From an uncultured Eubacteriales bacterium (lineage in GTDB: Bacteria; Acidobacteriota; Aminicenantia; Aminicenantales; Saccharicenantaceae), in the NCBI GenBank assembly GCA_964551995.1, contig CAZKFD010000011.1, forward strand, positions 43,374 to 107,373: a DNA stretch of 64,000 bases, read 5' to 3'. Positions 4,216-60,882 of the stretch are shown piece after piece. The notes under the pieces are model-generated. The model searched no databases. It saw nothing but the letters and a program-made list of their open reading frames with translations, and was not told where the DNA came from. Each line of letters begins with the position of its first letter. Position 1 is the first letter of the stretch. The position numbers and the translations under genes are program-made.

Positions 4216-5913
4216 TCAACTCCTCAGCTGGCGGTCCCGGATCGCCAGGAGCTCCTTCATGACCGGGAAGAGATGGCCCGCCCACTCCCGCGTCCCGAAG
4301 GCGTCGTGGAGCTCGCGGTAGAGCCGGTAGAGCCGGACGTATATTTCGTGGCGCTCCGGAGACGGCCTGTACGTCTTCTTCTTGAATCCGGACATGGCGG
4401 CCTGGGCCTCGGCGAAGGTGTCGTGGCCGCCGCCGGCTCTTCGGGCCGCCACGGCCCCGGCCATGGCCGCGCCGAGGGCGCAGGTCTGCGCCGAGCGGGC
4501 GATCTTCATCTCGAGGCCGATGACGTCGGCGTAGATCTGCATGACGAGCGGGTTCTTCTCGGCGATCCCGCCGCAGTTGACGACCTCGCGGATCTCGACG
4601 CCGAACTCGCGGAACCTCTGGATGATGGTCAGGGCGCCGAAGGCCGTGGCCTCGATGAGGGCCCTGTAGATCTCCTCGGGCCTGGTGTGGAGCGTCAGGC
4701 CGAGGATGAGGCCGGTCAGGCGCTGATCGACCAGGACCGTCCGGTTCCCGTTGTGCCAGTCGAGGGCGAGGAGGCCCGACGCGCCGGGCCTGAGGGCCGC
4801 GGCCTTCCGGGTCAGGGCCTCGTGGGAGCCCTTTTTCGGTCCGCCCGGTTCGATCTCGTTGACGAACCAGTTGAAGATGTCTCCGACGGCCGATTGGCCG
4901 GCCTCGAGTCCCAGGTATCCCGGCAGGACGGACCCGTCGACGATGCCGCAGAGGCCGGGAATGTCCGGCAGCTTCTCGCCGGCGGGCCAAACGCAGATGT
5001 CGCAGGTGCTCGTGCCGACGATCTTGACGAAGCGGCCCGTATCCACCCCCGAGCCGACCCCGCCCAGGTGTGCGTCGAAGGCCCCGACCGCGACGGGGAT
5101 GCCGGGCCTCAGTCCGAGGGCCTTGGCCCACTCCCGCGTCAGGGCGCCGGCCGGGGTGTCCGACGTATAGGTCTTCTTGTACAGGCGGTCGCGGAGCTCG
5201 CCGAGCCTCGGGTCGAGCCGGACCAGGAACTCCCGCGCGGGCAGGCCTCCCCAGGCGTCGTTGAACATCGCCTTGTGGCCGGCCGCGCAGCGGCTCCGCT
5301 TCATGAGCAAAGGGTCGGTCGTCCCCGTCAGGACCGCGGGGAGATAATCGGCGCATTCGACCCAGGAAAACGCGGCCGCCGAAACCTTCGGGTCGACGTG
5401 CAGGGCGTGGCGGATCTTGCTCCAGAACCATTCCGAGGAATACGTCCCGCCGCACTTGGCCAGATATTCGGGATGCTCCTTCGCCGCCAGGGCCGTAATC
5501 TCGGCGGCTTCGGCGTGGCCCGTGTGGTCTTTCCAGAGCCAGGCCTGGGCGTTCGGGTTTTTCCGGAACTCCCGATAGAGGGCCAGCGGCTTTCCGACGC
5601 GGTCCACGGGGAGCGGCGTCGAGCCCGTGGTGTCGATGCCGATCCCGATGACGTCCGCGGGATCGAACGTCCGGCTCTTCTTCCGGACCAACAGGACCGC
5701 CTCCCTCACCGTCGACCGGATTCCCGCCAACCAGTCGGCGGGATTCTGGCGGGCCAGATTAGGGTCCTTGGGATCGAGGATGATGCCGGCATGCCCCGTC
5801 AGATAGTCGAAGATGGCGGTTCCGACCTCGTTCCCGTTCCGGATGTCGACGATGAGGGCCCGGACCGAATTGGTCCCGAAATCGAGGCCGATGGCGTACT
5901 TGGATTTTCCCAT
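4216..5913 (-). CDS. araB: ribulokinase (FGGY carbohydrate kinase)
   Basis: MGKSKYAIGLDFGTNSVRALIVD... carries FGGY N- and C-domain signatures. ATG at 5913..5911 has GGAAAGGAG upstream. The track's MPDM start at 5922 is a TTG. Confidence 0.9.
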   Translation of the reverse strand: MGKSKYAIGLDFGTNSVRALIVDIRNGNEVGTAIFDYLTGHAGIILDPKDPNLARQNPADWLAGIRSTVREAVLLVRKKSRTFDPADVIGIGIDTTGSTPLPVDRVGKPLALYREFRKNPNAQAWLWKDHTGHAEAAEITALAAKEHPEYLAKCGGTYSSEWFWSKIRHALHVDPKVSAAAFSWVECADYLPAVLTGTTDPLLMKRSRCAAGHKAMFNDAWGGLPAREFLVRLDPRLGELRDRLYKKTYTSDTPAGALTREWAKALGLRPGIPVAVGAFDAHLGGVGSGVDTGRFVKIVGTSTCDICVWPAGEKLPDIPGLCGIVDGSVLPGYLGLEAGQSAVGDIFNWFVNEIEPGGPKKGSHEALTRKAAALRPGASGLLALDWHNGNRTVLVDQRLTGLILGLTLHTRPEEIYRALIEATAFGALTIIQRFREFGVEIREVVNCGGIAEKNPLVMQIYADVIGLEMKIARSAQTCALGAAMAGAVAARRAGGGHDTFAEAQAAMSGFKKKTYRPSPERHEIYVRLYRLYRELHDAFGTREWAGHLFPVMKELLAIRDRQLRS

Positions 5914-32200: not shown

Positions 32201-32597
32201 ACGCGCCCTTCGGGGATGGAACGGAATCCTCATACCTCCGGTTGACGGGCGCGCTGGGAACGTATTCCGGGCTGTTCATGACCATCTTCCTGATGAGCAG
32301 GACCATGCGCTCTCCGAGCCCTCCCCCCGTATCGGCCACCAGGTACCGGACGGCCCGCATCGTATCGTCGAAAAAGAAGTCGCCGACCTTGCCCACGTCG
32401 CCGTCGGTGGCCACGATCTGGTAACCGAGAAGTTCCTTGACGCTTCTCAGCGCTTGATGAGCTTCTGCCTGAATAGGGGACGGAAGCCGGCCGCCGGTTC
32501 GCGCCCACTCTGCACCGTTCCCGGGAGACGGGAGCCGATTGAAAAGCCCCCGGCCGGGGCCTATAATGGCCGTGGGCCGTTCAGGGCCGTGATTCAT
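32091..32597 (-). CDS. PRC-barrel domain protein (tentative boundaries)
   Basis: SVKELLGYQIVATDGDVGKVGDFFFDDTMRAVRYLVADTGG is a clear PRC-barrel signature. The ATG at 32597 lacks an obvious RBS. The 3' end overlaps the S9B gene by about 110 nt, so the N- and C-termini are uncertain. Confidence 0.45.
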   Translation of the reverse strand: MNHGPERPTAIIGPGRGLFNRLPSPGNGAEWARTGGRLPSPIQAEAHQALRSVKELLGYQIVATDGDVGKVGDFFFDDTMRAVRYLVADTGGGLGERMVLLIRKMVMNSPEYVPSAPVNRRYEDSVPSPKGAFNAPWLPAAGSRPETIETDCKGGALCPGLRRSRGCG

Positions 32598-54727: not shown

Positions 54728-56209
54728 TCAATGGGAGGAGGGAAGGTGGACGGTGAAAGCCGTCCCTTTTCCGACCCGGGTGGAGACCTCGATTCTCCCC
54801 CCGTGGGCTTCCGCGATGGCTTTGGCGATGGTCAGGCCCAGACCGAATCCCGCCGGCCCACGCTTTCTCTCGGCCCGGTAGAAGCGGTCGAAGATATGGG
54901 GCAGGTCCCGGTCGGAGATCCCCGGCCCCGTGTCGCCGATAGTGATCTTGGCGCCGCCGGCGTCCCGGCCGACGGTGGCGGTCACGGTGCCACCCGGGGG
55001 AGTGTATTTCAGGGCGTTATCCAGCAGGTTCAGGAACAGCTGCTTGAGCCGGGACCTGTCGGCGCGGACGATGATCCCCTCGGGGGCCGTGATCCCGAGG
55101 CCGATGCTCTTCTGCTCCGCCGAGACCGTGAGGTCGGCCCCGATCTCGCCAACGAGCTGCCCGACGTCGACCGAGCTCTTGTCGAGCGTCATGGTGTTAC
55201 TGTCGTAGCGGGCCGCCGTCAGCAGGTTTTCGGAGAGAGTCGCCATCCTGTCGACCTCCTCGAGGCCGCTGCGCAGGATCTCCTCGTACTCCTCGGGCGA
55301 GCGGCTCTTCATGAGCGCCACTTCGATCTCGCCCTTGAGGACCGAGAGCGGCGTCCGGAGCTCGTGGGACAGGTCCTCGACGAACTGGCGCTGGCTCGAG
55401 AACGAACGTTCGAGCCGGTCGAGCATGCCGTTGAACGTCTCGGCCAGCCTGCGGATCTCATCTTCCGCCGCCGTTTTCGGCAGGCCGATGCGGGCCTTGA
55501 GGTTCTCGGCCGTGATGCCCCGGATCGTGTTGATCATCCGGTCGACCGGATTCAGGGTGATCTTGGCGAGAAAGACGCCGACGAGCCCACTGGCGACCAT
55601 GAGGGCGGGGAAGAGCAGGAACAGCAAGAGCTTCAAGTGGTTGAGGGTTGCGGAAAGCGACGTCAGCGGCGAGATCACCTGGATGGCGTAGGCCGGCCGC
55701 CCGTCTTCCAGGGCCAGCAAGGAGAAGGCCCTCAGCTTGACGCTCCGGCCGGGAACTGTCTCAGCGGACATGTCCGTCAAGCGGCCCGCCGGGCCCAGGC
55801 TCGAGACCGGCTCCCTGAGCGGGACGTCCCCGGCCGACGGAATCTTGCGGGAGGATGCAATCAGGGCCCCGTCGGCGTCCAGGATCCGGACGTCGATATT
55901 CAGCAGCACGGGATCGTCGATCTTCTCGAGCAGCCAGCGCTGGACGATCCGGTTGAAGTTCAGGTTGTGGATCTTGGTCAGGCCGGCGGGAGGCACGCCG
56001 GCCCGCACGGCGTCCGCCTTCTCGGCCTCCCAGAAGGCGTTGATGGAATCCCGGATCCCGCTGGCCTTGGAGGAGAGGAGGTCATTGATGTCGTCCTGAA
56101 GGTTCTGGTTAACGTAGTGATAGAGCACGGTGCCGAACACCACAAAGGTCAATGACAGCACGGCCAGATACCAGAGGACGATCCGCGTGCGGAGCGAGGT
56201 CAGCGCCAT
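54728..56209 (-). CDS. sensor histidine kinase (2 TM, HAMP, HisKA, HATPase_c)
   Basis: H-box VEDLSHELRTPLS, N-box LNLLDNALKYT, G-boxes DTGPGIS and GFGLGLTIA. Confidence 0.9.
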   Translation of the reverse strand: MALTSLRTRIVLWYLAVLSLTFVVFGTVLYHYVNQNLQDDINDLLSSKASGIRDSINAFWEAEKADAVRAGVPPAGLTKIHNLNFNRIVQRWLLEKIDDPVLLNIDVRILDADGALIASSRKIPSAGDVPLREPVSSLGPAGRLTDMSAETVPGRSVKLRAFSLLALEDGRPAYAIQVISPLTSLSATLNHLKLLLFLLFPALMVASGLVGVFLAKITLNPVDRMINTIRGITAENLKARIGLPKTAAEDEIRRLAETFNGMLDRLERSFSSQRQFVEDLSHELRTPLSVLKGEIEVALMKSRSPEEYEEILRSGLEEVDRMATLSENLLTAARYDSNTMTLDKSSVDVGQLVGEIGADLTVSAEQKSIGLGITAPEGIIVRADRSRLKQLFLNLLDNALKYTPPGGTVTATVGRDAGGAKITIGDTGPGISDRDLPHIFDRFYRAERKRGPAGFGLGLTIAKAIAEAHGGRIEVSTRVGKGTAFTVHLPSSH

Positions 56210-56210
56210 A

Positions 56211-56879
56211 TCAGCCTTTCAGTGTGTAGCCGCGGCCCCGGAGCGTGCTGATGAGCGGCTTCGAGCGGTTCTGGTCGACCTTTTTCCGGAGATAATTGAT
56301 GTAGACGTCGATGACGTTTGAAAAGGAGTCGAAGTTCATGTCCCAGACGTGTTCGGCGATCATCGTCCGGGTGACGACAGTGCCCTCGTTCCGCATCAGG
56401 TATTCCAGGAGGGCGAATTCCTTCGGTGTGAGGGCGACCTCCTCCCCGCCGCGGGTTACGCGATGGGTCACGACGTCCATCACGAGGTCGTCGACCTGGA
56501 GCTTCGTCGCGTCCCGGGAATCCTTCTTTCGCAAAAGAGCCCGGCAGCGGGCCAGGAACTCCTCGAAGGCGAAGGGCTTGGTCAGGTAATCGTCCGCTCC
56601 CGCGTCCAGCCCGACGACCTTGTCCCGCACCCTGTCTTTGGCCGTGAGCATGAGGATGGGGACGGCGAGGCCCTTTTCGCGCAGATTCCGGCACAGGCTC
56701 AGGCCGTCCATCTTGGGGAGCATCAGGTCGAGCACGATGAGATCGTATTTCTCCGTGGTGGCCAGGAAATACCCCTGCTCCCCGTCGTCGGCGACATCGA
56801 CGCTGTAGCCTTCTTCCTTGAGACCCCGCCTGACGAAGGAAGCGATCTTGGCTTCGTCCTCGATGACAAGAACTCTCAC
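56211..56879 (-). CDS. OmpR-family response regulator
   Basis: MRVLVIEDE...DLIVLDLMLPKMDG...LTAKD receiver domain plus a winged-helix output domain. Confidence 0.9.
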   Translation of the reverse strand: MRVLVIEDEAKIASFVRRGLKEEGYSVDVADDGEQGYFLATTEKYDLIVLDLMLPKMDGLSLCRNLREKGLAVPILMLTAKDRVRDKVVGLDAGADDYLTKPFAFEEFLARCRALLRKKDSRDATKLQVDDLVMDVVTHRVTRGGEEVALTPKEFALLEYLMRNEGTVVTRTMIAEHVWDMNFDSFSNVIDVYINYLRKKVDQNRSKPLISTLRGRGYTLKG

Positions 56880-56914
56880 CGGGAGCTTCTCCCCATACGG
56901 ATCGGCTGTTTGAT

Positions 56915-56947
56915 GGCCCGGCGCGATGTCCCGGATCGCGCCGGGCC
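56915..56947 (-). terminator. 13-bp perfect GC-rich stem-loop downstream of the MerR-family gene
   Basis: GGCCCGGCGCGAT (56915..56927) pairs with ATCGCGCCGGGCC (56935..56947) around a 7-nt loop. No U-tract follows. It lies between the merR-like stop and the response-regulator start. Confidence 0.35.
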
Positions 56948-56961
56948 GACCCTATTATACG

Positions 56962-57711
56962 CTACTTTTTCTTCGCCGCGGCATGGGCCTTCTTGATGAA
57001 GTCCCAGACCTCGGGGCCGAACATGCGGCGGTCCTCCGGGATCGCACCCGCCGTATAGGCCTGCCCGATCCTGGCCTTGAGCCCGGGATGGTTGCCGTAG
57101 GCTTCGTCGAGCAGGTCTTGCCAACGCTTCGCCAGAGATTGGGCGGTCTGGCCAGCCGGATCGGCGCCGAGGTTCTTTTTGACCTCGGCGATGAGCGCGG
57201 CCCAGCGGCGCTCGTACTCTGCCATGGCCGCGGGGGTGTAAGCCTTACCGATCTCCTGGAACTCCCGGAGCTCCTCCTTTGTGAAGAATTTCTCCTGCCA
57301 TGCCTTCTTGACGTCTTCGCCCATTTGAATGACCTCCATGATCTGAATGAGTTTTTTCCGGTTGATCCGGCCGTCCGTCTCGAGACGCTTCAGGACCTGA
57401 TCGATGGCCCGGGAGGCCCGCCTGAGCCGGCCGATCTCGTCCTTCACCGCCTCGCCCTGAATCTTCAGGGACCTGACGACTTCGAAGCCCTTGAGGTCGA
57501 GCAGGTCGCGGATCCGGGCAAGGGGGAAGCGCATGAACTTCAGCGTCACGATCTGCTGGAGACGAAGGAGGTCTGCCTCGCCGTAGACGCGGTACCCGTT
57601 GGGCTTCTGGAAGCTCGGCTTGAGCAGGCCGATCTGGTCGTAGTAATGGAGTGTCCTGACCGTGACCTTCGTCAGATCGGCGAACTCCTTGACGAGATAG
57701 GTTTGTTTCAT
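56962..57711 (-). CDS. MerR family transcriptional regulator with TipAS-like C-terminal effector domain (TipAL/Mta-like)
   Basis: MKQTYLVKEFADLTKVTVRTLHYYDQIGLLKP... is the MerR HTH. A coiled-coil linker is followed by a roughly 140-aa helical C-terminal domain, as in TipAL/SkgA/Mta. Confidence 0.9.
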   Translation of the reverse strand: MKQTYLVKEFADLTKVTVRTLHYYDQIGLLKPSFQKPNGYRVYGEADLLRLQQIVTLKFMRFPLARIRDLLDLKGFEVVRSLKIQGEAVKDEIGRLRRASRAIDQVLKRLETDGRINRKKLIQIMEVIQMGEDVKKAWQEKFFTKEELREFQEIGKAYTPAAMAEYERRWAALIAEVKKNLGADPAGQTAQSLAKRWQDLLDEAYGNHPGLKARIGQAYTAGAIPEDRRMFGPEVWDFIKKAHAAAKKK

Positions 57712-57729
57712 GCTCTTATCCCGGCCCCC

Positions 57730-57760
57730 ATTATCAACTATGACGTAACGTCAAAGTCAA
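57730..57760 (-). promoter_or_regulatory. MerR-type promoter: -35 TTGACT, 19-bp spacer containing the dyad TGACGT-a-ACGTCA, -10 GATAAT
   Basis: On the minus strand the sequence reads cTTGACT-ttgacgttacgtcatagt-tGATAAT. The 6-1-6 perfect palindrome (plus-strand 57741..57753) sits inside the 19-bp spacer. It is about 18 nt upstream of the merR-like ATG. Confidence 0.55.
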
Positions 57761-57892
57761 GAGTTTCCGCGGCTGCCGGCGTTTCACGGCCGGAATGAGA
57801 GGGGCCGGTGTTCCGGACGATGCCTCCGCTCTCTCCCCCCGAAGGCCATTCCTCCGGAAACGGCGGCCGGGAAGCGTCCCGATGGGGGCCGG

Positions 57893-59206
57893 TCAGTCGG
57901 TCACGGGCAGGCCCGTCGCCCGGTCGAGGGCCGTCTGGCTCAGGACAAACTCGTAGAGGGCCCGGAGCTTGAGGAACTGGGCCTCGACGAAGGCGTCTTC
58001 GGTGTCCAGAAGATCCAGGTTCGTGATGGTGCCGGCTTCGTAGCGGGCTCTGGCGAACTCCAGGGCTTTTTTGGCCTGCTCGATGTCGACCTCCACGGAG
58101 CGGAGTTTTTCTTCGCTGGCTTTCACGTCGGAAACCGCTTGCAGGACTTCGGACCGGATCAGGTCGTCGAGCTCGCGCGTCCGGTTTTTGATAGCCGTGA
58201 GCCCGGCTTCCGCTTCCGCCTTCAGGCTTCGAGTGAGGCCGCCGTCAAAGATGGGAACATCGACCTGGACGGCGGCCACGTAATCGAGCTTCCAGGTGTT
58301 GACGTTGGGGATATAGCCGTTCTTCGTTCCGCCGAGGATGTTCAGGCTGACCGAGGGCCGGTCGCGGAGACCGGCGACGCGAACCTGGAGGTCGGCCGTC
58401 CGGATCAGGTTCTGGAGGGCCCGGGCCTCCGGCCGCTTCTGCCACGCGTCCTTGATAAGCGCGTCGGGGTCGAGGGCCATCTCGCGGTAGGTGAATTCGC
58501 CGCGGAGCTTGAGCGGGGCGACGGATTCAAAGCCCATCAGGCGGCGCAGGGCAAGCTCCTGCTTTTCCATGCTGTTCTCGAGGTCGACGATCTGGTTCTG
58601 GGCCGCGACGAGCCGGACCTGCGTATTGAGCACCTCGAGCTCGGTCGCCGTTCCGATGGCCAGCTTCTTGCGGCTGATCTGGATGTGGTCGTTGAGGTCC
58701 CGGACGTGGTCGTTTTCGACGCGGATGCTCTCCTGGAGGAAGAGAATGGCGTCGAAGAGTTGGGCGGTCTCGAACGCGAGATCGCGCTTCATCAAGTCCC
58801 TGTGGTCCTCGGCCGTCGCCACTTCGGACGTGGAAAGTCTGACCGATTCCTTGGTCCGTCCGCCGTCGTAGATCAGCTGGCGGAGGCCGGCGTGGAGGTC
58901 GAAATTATTGGCCGGGTACAGTTCGAAGGTGCCGAGGCCGGGGACGGCCAGGACTTCCAGCGGCCCGATCCGGGTGTATGAGAGGCTGCCGGCGAAGTTG
59001 GGCTTGAGGGCCGTGCGGGATTCATCGACGCGGGCCAGGGAGACGGCCACGGAATCCGAGGCCTCCTTGAGGGCGGGGTTGTGGGCCAGCACGATCCGCA
59101 CCGCATCCTCGAGGCTGAGCGAGTCGGCTTCGGATGTCTGGGGGAATGCCGACAGGGGGAGAAAAAGGACCAGAAGAATCAAAATGTTCACGCGAAGATG
59201 TCTCAT
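57893..59206 (-). CDS. TolC-family outer membrane efflux protein
   Basis: Signal peptide MRHLRVNILILLVLFLPLSAFPQ. Two OEP repeats with the typical heptad pattern. 437 aa. Confidence 0.85.
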   Translation of the reverse strand: MRHLRVNILILLVLFLPLSAFPQTSEADSLSLEDAVRIVLAHNPALKEASDSVAVSLARVDESRTALKPNFAGSLSYTRIGPLEVLAVPGLGTFELYPANNFDLHAGLRQLIYDGGRTKESVRLSTSEVATAEDHRDLMKRDLAFETAQLFDAILFLQESIRVENDHVRDLNDHIQISRKKLAIGTATELEVLNTQVRLVAAQNQIVDLENSMEKQELALRRLMGFESVAPLKLRGEFTYREMALDPDALIKDAWQKRPEARALQNLIRTADLQVRVAGLRDRPSVSLNILGGTKNGYIPNVNTWKLDYVAAVQVDVPIFDGGLTRSLKAEAEAGLTAIKNRTRELDDLIRSEVLQAVSDVKASEEKLRSVEVDIEQAKKALEFARARYEAGTITNLDLLDTEDAFVEAQFLKLRALYEFVLSQTALDRATGLPVTD

Positions 59207-59289
59207 CGTCGTTCACCTTTCGGTCCGTCTTGTTACGGGATTCGCCCCGGCCGCGGCCCCGGCCGGCGGCGTCCCTGAACGATCGCCGG

Positions 59290-60321
59290 CTACTTGATCC
59301 GGATCTTGATCTCGACCGACATTCCGGGGCGCAGGGGAAATTCCCTCCGAAGCTCGGGGTTCATGTCGTCCAGGTAGATCCGCAGCGGCACCCGCTGCGT
59401 AATCTTGGTGAAATTGCCCGAGGCGTTGTCGGGTGGGATGAGTGAGAACTGGGCGGCCGTGTAATCGTAGATCAAACCGACCTTCCCGGTGAAGGTCCGG
59501 CCGGGATAGGTGTCGATCGTGACCGTCGCCGGATCCTGCAGCCTGATGTGGCCGAGCTTGGTCTCTTCGAGGTTGGCCGTCACCCAGATGCGCTCGGTCT
59601 CGTAGATCGTGAAGACGGGCTGCCCGGGCTGGACGATATCCCCCTCCATCAGCCAGCGCTTCGAAACGATCCCGTCGAAAGGGGCCACGACGGTCATGTT
59701 CTGCAGCTGCGTCTCGGCGACGCCCAGCTGGGCCTTGGCCACACCGATTCGGGACACGGCGATGGCATATTCCGCCCGGGCCGCGTCCAGGGTCTGTTGG
59801 GCGTGGATATGCTGCTCCTTGGTGATGACCGAATTCTTGTATTGCAGATCCGCCCTTTCGAAATCGTCCGAGGCCCGGTCGACGTTGACCTTGGCCAGCT
59901 CGAGGCTGTTCTCGGCCAGGCTGAGACCGGCCCTGGCCTGCTCCACCTGGGCCCGGACGTCCGTGTCGTCGAGCTGGATCAGCAGCTGGCTCCTCTTCAC
60001 CGCGCCCCCCTCGTCAACCGTCAGCCGGACGATCCGGCCGAGGACCTTGGTGCTGATCGAAACCCGGTCGGCGTCCAGGTAGGCGTCGTCCGTGGAAACG
60101 TAGTTGAGCAGGTTCTTGTACCAGTACCAGGCCCCGAGAGCCATGGCCAGGACGAGGAGAAAGAAGGGAATGAGAACCCGCTTCTTCCGGTAGAGGGGGA
60201 CATGATTGATCGCTTCGTTGTCCTCGCCGCCGTTCGGCGGCGTCGCGGCATCCGGCGGAGGATCGGCCGGCCCGGTGCTGGCCCGGCCAGCGGGCCTAGG
60301 CTCTTTCGGTCCCTGTTCCAT
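59290..60321 (-). CDS. HlyD-family membrane fusion / secretion protein (EmrA-like)
   Basis: Low-complexity cytoplasmic N-terminus, one TM (VLIPFFLLVLAMALGAWYWY), a long coiled-coil (VRAQVEQARAGLSLAENSLELAKVNVDR...), then lipoyl/beta-barrel domains. The true start may lie downstream of 60321. Confidence 0.85.
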   Translation of the reverse strand: MEQGPKEPRPAGRASTGPADPPPDAATPPNGGEDNEAINHVPLYRKKRVLIPFFLLVLAMALGAWYWYKNLLNYVSTDDAYLDADRVSISTKVLGRIVRLTVDEGGAVKRSQLLIQLDDTDVRAQVEQARAGLSLAENSLELAKVNVDRASDDFERADLQYKNSVITKEQHIHAQQTLDAARAEYAIAVSRIGVAKAQLGVAETQLQNMTVVAPFDGIVSKRWLMEGDIVQPGQPVFTIYETERIWVTANLEETKLGHIRLQDPATVTIDTYPGRTFTGKVGLIYDYTAAQFSLIPPDNASGNFTKITQRVPLRIYLDDMNPELRREFPLRPGMSVEIKIRIK

Positions 60322-60766
60322 AAGTGGATCTCCTTCGTTCGAGGTTCGCCCGGATATGCTCCAGAAGCCGCCGCAGCAACTTTTTCTCTTCTCCCGTCAG
60401 ACCCGACAGCAGCCGCCTCTCCTGGCTGCGCCAGACACGGAGAACGGGGCCCTCCAGCACCCGGCCTTTCCGCGTCGCATAAACCCGCGTCACCCGGGCG
60501 TCGTCCTTGTCGGGGCGGCGCCCGACGAGGCCGGCTTTAGCCATGCGCCGGAGCATAATGCTGACTGTGGCCTGTTCCACACCGAGCCGTTCCGCCAGCT
60601 GCCCCTGGGATAGGCTATGGCCGGCACAAAGGTGGATGAGCAGGAGCTCCTGTCCGACGCGCAGTCCGAGCCGTCCGAGCGCCCTTTCTCCCTCCTGACG
60701 AAAGGCCTTGTGGGCCATGACGAATTCGATGCCCACGAAGCCCGCAAGTTGCTTGACGGTCGTCAT
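60296..60766 (-). CDS. MarR family transcriptional regulator
   Basis: 156 aa. wHTH region reads LSQGQLAERLGVEQATVSIMLRRMAKAGLVGRRPDKDDARVTRVYATRKG. Confidence 0.85.
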   Translation of the reverse strand: MTTVKQLAGFVGIEFVMAHKAFRQEGERALGRLGLRVGQELLLIHLCAGHSLSQGQLAERLGVEQATVSIMLRRMAKAGLVGRRPDKDDARVTRVYATRKGRVLEGPVLRVWRSQERRLLSGLTGEEKKLLRRLLEHIRANLERRRSTYGTGTERA

Positions 60767-60882
60767 GCGGGTCTGTCGCCTCCGGAGGAACAGTCAACTG
60801 ATTAGACGTCAAAGCATTATCGTTCGATCGCCGCGGGCTGTCAAGAACGAGGAGAAATTTTTTTCCGCTGGGGCCCGGTGTT

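Follow-up and report, generated by a model that had tools for sequence, protein, structure and literature searches.

[quoted passage not shown] With a spacer of 19 bp the -10 element is misplaced by ~7 Angstrom and ~72 degrees, and the two hexamers are realigned when the activated dimer, bound to the spacer, introduces a kink and untwists the DNA (PMC9909328). The TipA class departs from the classical MerR switch from repressor to activator, since its apo form is autoinhibited and the ligand increases its affinity for DNA. The C-terminal domain of the apo protein occludes the DNA-binding domain, and the ligand raises the affinity for the promoter ~12-fold (PMC7762955). TipA binds thiostrepton covalently through a cysteine of the C-terminal domain and also gives rise, from an alternative start, to a short ligand-binding product (PMC7762955). 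Binding of TipAL, Mta and SkgA was measured with 26-bp duplexes that begin at the -35 element, namely ptipA (TTGCACCTCACGTCACGTGAGGAGGC), pmta (TTGACCCTAACGTTGCGTGATTGTTT) and pskgA (TTGACCCTCACGCCACGTCAGACCTG) (PMC7762955). Tighter binding by the N-terminal domain was reported for TipAN (PMC7762955).

For AlbA of Klebsiella oxytoca, a TipAS-type protein that binds albicidin, the half-site ACNCTNACG, which spans the end of the -35 element, was obtained by SELEX, and the 19-bp spacer is centred at -24 (10.64898/2026.09.21.753095). AlbA contacts bases at -33 and -15, just beyond the palindrome, kinks the DNA at the central pair (-24) and compresses the spacer, so that its 19 bp occupy the length of 17 bp. 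The protein stimulated the 19-bp promoter, and a promoter variant with a 17-bp spacer showed raised basal transcription. As for TipA, a short ligand-binding product is made from an alternative start (10.64898/2026.09.21.753095).

Here we analysed a stretch of 64 kb, from here on the window, which contains a site of this type in front of a MerR-family regulator gene. We consider it very likely that through this site, as promoter and operator, a TipA-class regulator of Candidatus Aminicenantes controls its own gene; the class consists of MerR-family proteins of the drug-sensor type with a TipAS domain.

Promoter architecture

On the minus strand, the sequence from 57760 to 57709 reads TTGACT-TTGACGTTACGTCATAGTT-GATAAT-GGGGGCCGGGATAAGAGC-ATG (Table 1). 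The preliminary description of this DNA had placed TTGACT and GATAAT 19 bp apart, with a perfect 6-1-6 dyad inside the spacer; both statements proved exact, with the promoter on the minus strand at 57760..57730 and the dyad at spacer positions 2-14. Hexamers at the alternative distances of 17 and 18 bp (TTGATA and TGATAA) match TATAAT at just 2/6 positions, so that 19 bp is the sole sensible spacing. A standard sigma-70 promoter scan of positions 56800-58100 yielded no promoter, which is uninformative here because the scan permits spacers of 16-18 bp only. The extended operator, a 21-bp pseudo-palindrome, contains a single mismatched pair, and its left arm reaches three bases into the end of the -35 hexamer.

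The ATG of the regulator gene is located at 57711, 18 bp past the -10 element, and the predicted transcription start would leave a leader of only about 11-13 nt. In the leaders of the orthologues GTGGACAAGGCC takes the place of the GGGATAAGAGC of the window. No RNA family was found in an Rfam scan of positions 56700-58100, and we therefore assume neither a riboswitch nor a leader RNA.

Table 1. Positions of the promoter, operator, regulator gene and neighbouring features in the window
Feature	Position	Strand	Basis or remark
-35 hexamer TTGACT	57755..57760	minus	5/6 matches to consensus; read from sequence
Spacer TTGACGTTACGTCATAGTT, exactly 19 bp	57736..57754	minus	read from sequence
-10 hexamer GATAAT	57730..57735	minus	5/6 matches, with A2 and T6
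Core operator dyad TGACGT-N-ACGTCA, perfect 6-1-6	57741..57753	both	spacer positions 2-14
Extended 21-bp pseudo-palindromic operator ACTtTGACGT-T-ACGTCAtAGT	57737..57757	both	read from sequence
Predicted transcription start, 6-9 nt after the -10 element	57721..57724	minus	from the position of the -10 element
Short 5' leader with weak ribosome-binding site (GGGATAAGAGC before ATG)	57712..57723	minus	sequence; moderately conserved leader
Gene for the 249-aa regulator (MerR winged helix-turn-helix joined by a coiled coil to a TipAS-type ligand-binding domain)	56962..57711	minus	open reading frame, profile search
Internal Shine-Dalgarno motif GGAGG, 8 nt before the in-frame ATG of Met130	57333..57337	minus	sequence
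Predicted short isoform Met130-Lys249, 120 aa, ligand-binding domain alone	56962..57324	minus	sequence signature
MarR-HlyD-OEP operon	60766..57893	minus	upstream of the regulator gene, co-oriented
OmpR-type response regulator and histidine kinase	56879..54728	minus	downstream; response-regulator GTG at 56879
G+C hairpin, perfect 13-bp stem, 7-nt loop, no U tract	56915..56947	minus	15 nt past the stop codon

The regulator

An independent gene call yielded the same 249-aa product, located between the OEP gene and the response-regulator gene, and a 100% identical protein is present in public assemblies (P0001). Named homologues and related genome records stem largely from Candidatus Aminicenantes metagenome-assembled genomes (MAGs). 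The profiles PF13411 (MerR_1) and PF00376 (MerR) matched at 57.7 bits (cut-off 21.6) and 50.5 bits, respectively, over residues 5-72. PF07739 (TipAS) matched residues 134-222 at 39.6 bits (curated cut-off 23.8, E = 8.6e-10), a moderate match that covers profile positions 5-92 of 117.

Among proteins of solved structure, the best relatives were SkgA (7CLA, E = 1.1e-21), Lmo0526 (3QAO), TipAN (2VZ4) and MtaN (1JBG/1R8D). For this reason, and with MerR_1 and TipAS matches in the gene directly downstream of the promoter, the label "TipAL/Mta-like" that the regulator had been given from its letters is correct. The N-terminal domain matched MtaN at E = 1.5e-17. When the C-terminal 120 residues were compared with the sequences of the PDB, only AlbA was matched (E = 6.7e-08) and TipAS was not recovered.

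The regulator thus has what characterizes the TipA class, an N-terminal MerR winged helix-turn-helix followed by a coiled coil and a C-terminal PF07739 domain. It has its own 19-bp-spacer promoter holding the operator, and the sequence and register of this operator are those of tipA, mta, skgA and albA. The spacer length and the long internal palindrome also agree with the definition of distortion-activated MerR-type promoters (PMC9909328). The 249 residues include 0 cysteines. The reactive C-terminal-domain cysteine by which a thiopeptide-responsive TipA binds thiostrepton covalently is therefore missing, and covalent thiopeptide capture in the manner of TipA is excluded. The thiopeptide or cationic-drug inducers named in the preliminary description were guesses.

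Conservation of the promoter

In the genome collection the regulator gene was found at 45 loci, and 40 of these have a recognisable site. The comparison comprised 41 promoters, i.e. that of the window, those of 39 loci from MAGs of Aminicenantes or allied lineages and one gammaproteobacterial locus. The encoded proteins are mostly 64-77% identical to the regulator of the window; identity is 38% for the gammaproteobacterial homologue.

When anchored on the dyad, the 41 promoters could be aligned without a gap from the -35 to the -10 element. The spacer measures 19 bp in 41/41 promoters, with no variants of 17 or 18 bp. TTGACT is present in 37/41 and TTGAC in 39/41. The dyad is near-invariant; among its rare deviations are two in L004 that preserve the symmetry (TAACGT-T-ACGTTA). 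The TAG that follows the dyad is kept across the 41 promoters, which is to be expected if this triplet is the counterpart of the ACT in the -35 hexamer. The -10 hexamer is variable (CACAAT in 11 promoters, GATAAT in 10, GACAAT in 5, also TATACT and others), with A2 and T6 retained in 41/41. The same plan is visible in distant loci, such as L038 (49% identity; TTGCAT-ATGACGTAACGTCATATTT-TATACT) and the gammaproteobacterial L044 (38% identity; TTGAAC-CTAACGTTACGTTATGTTG-TATATT). Beyond ~25 bp upstream of the -35 element there is essentially no conserved information.

In most of the orthologous promoters (L001-L041), the region just in front of the -35 element, about -45 to -60 from the predicted start, is rich in A/T and partly palindromic (GAAAATATTTTC-like, or A runs). 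This tract resembles an UP element but might also provide another site for protein binding. The equivalent region of the window (57765-57790) is G+C-rich instead, and since the upstream A/T-rich, UP-like tract is absent, this copy of the promoter may be weaker.

Comparison with experimentally defined operators

The sequence TTGACTTTGACGTTACGTCATAGTTG of the window aligns gaplessly and in the same register with ptipA, pmta and pskgA. All four follow a common plan of -35 element, one base, 6-1-6 dyad and five bases, and T1, T2, G3, T8, A10, C11, G12, C16, G17 and T18 are invariant. The core of the dyad is CGT-N-(A/G)CGT throughout and ACGT-N-ACGT in the window and ptipA. As the register of the class operator we used the -35 element, 1 nt and T-N-ACGT-N-ACGT-N-A, with the half-site ACNCTNACG.

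Against the AlbA SELEX motif ACNCTNACG, the Aminicenantes consensus ACTCTGACG matches at 9/9 positions and the left half of the window operator, ACTTTGACG, at 8/9. The window differs from both the orthologue and the AlbA consensus by a T for C at the first spacer base, about -31. With the centre of the dyad at -24, the C of TTGACT falls on -33 and the G of TAGT on -15, which are the symmetric contacts of AlbA. The gapless alignment of 41 promoters, the register shared with the tipA, mta and skgA probes and the AlbA SELEX motif bear out the initial view of a MerR-type autoregulatory promoter, a sequence-based assignment from which we infer autoregulation.

A close counterpart is TipAL/TipAS of Streptomyces lividans, with the same architecture of MerR winged helix-turn-helix and TipAS domain and with a matching operator register (TTGCAC-C-TCACGT-C-ACGTGA at tipA, TTGACT-T-TGACGT-T-ACGTCA in the window). 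The tipA gene is autoregulated, as would be the regulator of the window, and has a second in-frame start that yields the ligand-binding domain alone, of which the window shows the sequence signature. The two differ in that TipA attaches thiostrepton covalently whereas the window protein is cysteine-free, in their origin (an actinomycete versus the candidate phylum Aminicenantes) and in the -35 and -10 hexamers, which in the window, unlike in the tipA promoter, are close to the E. coli-type consensus.

Mta of Bacillus subtilis (MtaN-DNA structure 1R8D) belongs to the same class, acts by DNA distortion and has the operator register TTGACC-C-TAACGT-T-GCGTGA. However, Mta also activates the efflux genes bmr and blt (PMC9909328), whereas the window has no second site despite the adjoining efflux operon. 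SkgA of Caulobacter crescentus (7CLA), the best match of solved structure, has the register TTGACC-C-TCACGC-C-ACGTCA but is tied to the stationary-phase regulation of katG, and no such target is visible in the window. In case of AlbA, both the SELEX half-site ACNCTNACG and the 19-bp spacer match the Aminicenantes sites, and by sequence AlbA is the solved structure most similar to the C-terminal domain of the window protein. AlbA also upregulates its own expression, and alternative translation gives a shorter product, AlbAS. The ligand-binding domain of AlbA, however, is duplicated in tandem, whereas the window protein has a single domain of ~120 aa. With the 19-20-bp-spacer promoters of MerR, BmrR and CueR the site shares the over-long spacer, the internal palindrome and the logic of activation by distortion, but these regulators differ in operator sequence and effector domain. 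Moreover, classical merR is divergent from its target, whereas in the window the regulated gene is that of the regulator itself.

[quoted passage not shown] The regulator could then be a pure auto-repressor acting by steric occlusion, with a 19-bp promoter that is merely weak and not activated by distortion. Such an arrangement would, however, hardly explain why the 19-bp spacing is invariant in 41/41 promoters unless this length is functionally required. Members that bind in the same register, TipAL, Mta and AlbA, are activators, and AlbA stimulated the 19-bp promoter whereas the 17-bp variant raised basal transcription (10.64898/2026.09.21.753095). We therefore judge pure auto-repression to be improbable and favour activation by spacer distortion as the likely mode.

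The operator in metagenomes

Metagenome contigs were scanned for exact matches to the pattern TTGACNCTGACGTNACGTCA, which yielded at least 121 sites on at least 120 contigs. Among the matches listed, a MerR homologue starts on the same strand within 200 nt downstream at 95 of the 121 sites (at least 79%); in the best aligned segment these homologues are 25-81% identical to the window protein, with a median of 34% for the matches listed. The matches listed also included 68 complete regulators with 20-76% identity to the window protein. A MerR domain was detected in 68/68 and a TipAS domain in 60/68 (61/69 with the window). The operator is therefore a signature of the whole class, which overwhelmingly marks the regulator's own promoter.

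The other 26 sites among the matches listed include 11 that end at a contig edge. Three sites that looked MerR-less were considered as other targets and rejected, since all of them head DUF2268-merR operons and are thus still autoregulatory. In these two-gene operons (L068:3522-5154, L098:1081-2677 and L149, minus strand, about 4326-5609) the operator promoter is followed first by the gene for the DUF2268 protein, a predicted zinc protease (~304 aa), and then by that of the MerR/TipA-class regulator. L084 is probably a fourth such operon, incomplete at the contig end. Another 11 sites among the matches listed precede unrelated or no detectable genes. Operators without a nearby MerR gene were observed before genes for a PhyH-family dioxygenase (L076), a BrkB/YihY-family membrane protein (L079/L088) and a HEAT-repeat protein (L148), and these may be true non-self targets of the class in other lineages or chance matches. 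L133 (5289-5360) has a promoter of the Aminicenantes type together with the conserved leader GGAGGCGTGGACAAGGCC and an ATG, but no MerR frame follows; a lipoprotein-like open reading frame of 302 aa with a weak DUF6263 match starts ~210 nt downstream. This promoter may be a remnant after loss of the regulator gene.

The dyad might alternatively be the site of a different or an additional transcription factor, with the TipA-like protein regulating other genes. The A/T-rich element of the orthologues (GAAAATATTTTC-like, about -45 to -60) could indeed bind another factor, but this element is absent from the window. The dyad itself is the same as the sites to which TipAL, Mta, SkgA and AlbA bind in vitro, and in unrelated contexts it accompanies MerR/TipAS genes with 20-76% identity, which makes recognition by another protein highly unlikely. 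The evidence thus favours the TipA-class regulator as the protein that would act on its own promoter.

Signal and chance in the window

The dyad by itself proves nothing because palindromes of this kind occur at chance frequency. In the window, the composition of which is 64.7% G+C, 28 perfect 6-1-6 palindromes were counted, compared with 30 +/- 5 in first-order Markov simulations, and for the exact dyad, when up to 2 mismatches are allowed, the expectation is 1.15 occurrences per window. The palindrome alone was consequently rejected as a significant feature. Sites with a 19-bp spacer and at least 5/6 matches in both hexamers (with A2 and T6) occur twice, versus an expectation of 0.11, and the composite of such a promoter with a dyad of at least 6-bp arms in its spacer appeared in 0/150 simulated windows. 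By a weight matrix derived from the operators of the 40 orthologous loci, the operator of the window was given 38.1 bits out of a possible 41.9. Elsewhere in the 64 kb the highest score was 1.5 bits, which is within the span of the maxima of simulated windows (0 to 7.1).

The decisive evidence is the conservation across orthologous promoters. It largely refutes the reading that hexamers and dyad are a chance or non-functional combination and that expression comes by read-through from the MarR-HlyD-OEP operon, a reading with very little left to recommend it: it can point to the chance frequency of perfect 6-1-6 palindromes and to the stretch from the OEP stop (57893) to the promoter, in which no terminator was detected, but the composite did not arise in 150 simulations, the promoter precedes the orthologous gene at 39 other MAG loci without the efflux and two-component neighbours of the window (one distant HlyD/OEP pair aside), and the motif is tied to TipAS regulators across phyla.

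A predicted short isoform

Codons 125-130 of the regulator gene read ATG GAG GTC ATT CAA ATG (57339..57322), which places GGAGG in front of the codon for Met130. Met130 lies four residues before the start of the TipAS match (residue 134, profile position 5). Met130-Gly131 would correspond to the Met-Gly start of S. lividans TipAS, a correspondence that we do not count as evidence. Codon choice at this site was compared among 32 coding sequences, comprising 31 orthologues and the window. Glu126 is encoded by GAG in 32/32 sequences (527/680 elsewhere in the same genes), Gln129 by CAA in 31/32 (45/335 elsewhere), Ile128 by ATT in 24/32 (12/433 elsewhere) and Glu132 by GAA in 31/31 (153/680 elsewhere). 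The rare codons ATT and CAA keep the spacer between GGAGG and ATG A/T-rich. Because rare A/T-ending codons are kept around a Shine-Dalgarno motif and an ATG, an internal translation start is predicted.

Met130 is invariant in a protein alignment of 14 sequences. Among 69 regulators, 42 have an aligned Met, and 33 of those have a Shine-Dalgarno-like motif 4-11 nt upstream, including a subfamily of only about 30-37% identity. These signatures point to a probable second isoform of 120 aa that starts at Met130 and resembles TipAS and AlbAS, which fits the class.

Proposed mechanism and implications

In the mechanism that we infer for induction, the two hexamers would, for the housekeeping sigma factor, be 2 bp too distant and rotated out of phase by about 70-72 degrees, so that basal transcription would be low. 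A dimer of the regulator would bind the 21-bp pseudo-palindrome with its centre at about -24, each winged helix-turn-helix reading one half-site and the left half-site overlapping the end of the -35 element. A hydrophobic ligand in the C-terminal TipAS-type domain would relieve the autoinhibition of the DNA-binding domain, and the bound dimer would then kink and under-twist the spacer to bring the -35 and -10 elements into register. RNA polymerase could thereupon open the promoter, and the regulator would amplify its own synthesis. From GGAGG-N8-ATG, the same mRNA would probably yield a 120-aa ligand sponge or buffer, as with TipAS and AlbAS.

We tentatively suggest that in Aminicenantes, in allied MAGs and in many other lineages this gene could form a free-standing one-gene module, i.e. 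sensor, self-amplifier and, through its internal start, ligand sponge, that responds to and sequesters a non-thiopeptide natural product new to the class. A ligand other than a thiopeptide is suggested because the regulator is cysteine-free and its ligand pocket is closest to that of AlbA. We regard this wider proposal as a possibility, clearly less secure than the assignment of the promoter.

The promoter is a textbook TipA-class autoregulatory promoter, and what is new is the lineage, in which such a promoter had not been studied. The gain for basic understanding is little, since work on TipAL, Mta, SkgA and AlbA had established mechanism and operator before. For an uncultivated phylum, the analysis does permit regulator, promoter, operator and a probable second isoform to be annotated with confidence. 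TipA-class promoters are recognisable from sequence alone because the operator is conserved almost base-for-base across distant phyla. If the wider proposal is true, the near-universal operator TTGACnCTGACGTnACGTCA would let TipA-class regulons, for instance the recurrent DUF2268-merR operons, be read from metagenomes. The near-consensus promoter with its 19-bp spacer might also serve as a biosensor chassis once the ligand is found.

Regulon and neighbouring genes

The suggestion that the same dyad could mark further regulon members found no support, as neither the pattern (up to 2 mismatches) nor the orthologue weight matrix detected a second operator in the 64-kb window. There was likewise no second promoter-type site within ~4 kb on either side of the orthologous genes, as far as the contigs permitted. 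With no second operator in the window, only autoregulation is supported.

A link to the neighbouring genes was considered and rejected, as no response regulator, histidine kinase or MarR homologue adjoins the regulator gene at the 45 loci; the sole exception in the neighbourhood is a distant HlyD/OEP pair (22-27% identity) at L007. A terminator scan of positions 56800-58100 detected no canonical terminator between the regulator gene and either neighbour. The OEP gene has the same orientation, and in the absence of a detected terminator read-through from it could add to expression. The response-regulator gene lies 82 bp downstream of the regulator gene. The RNA of the 86-nt intergenic stretch folds at -41.9 kcal/mol (z = -3.0), and the hairpin at 56915..56947 is terminator-like and may be a transcript end or a stabilising structure.

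Further promoter-like sequences were observed in the window. A perfect TATAAT at 56954-56959 (minus strand), directly past the stop codon of the regulator gene and ~75 nt upstream of the response-regulator GTG, has no matching -35 element and may be the -10 element for the two-component genes. The MarR gene (60296-60766) shares 26 nt with the HlyD-family gene, and the OEP gene is next. Some 50 bp in front of the MarR gene, at 60816-60844 (minus strand), a near-consensus TTGACA-17 bp-GATAAT probably serves as promoter for a MarR-controlled efflux operon. On the plus strand, a strong promoter-like sequence, TTGAAA-17 bp-TATAAT, is located at 32539-32567, and its G+C-rich spacer AGCCCCCGGCCGGGGCC contains a palindrome with 6-bp arms.
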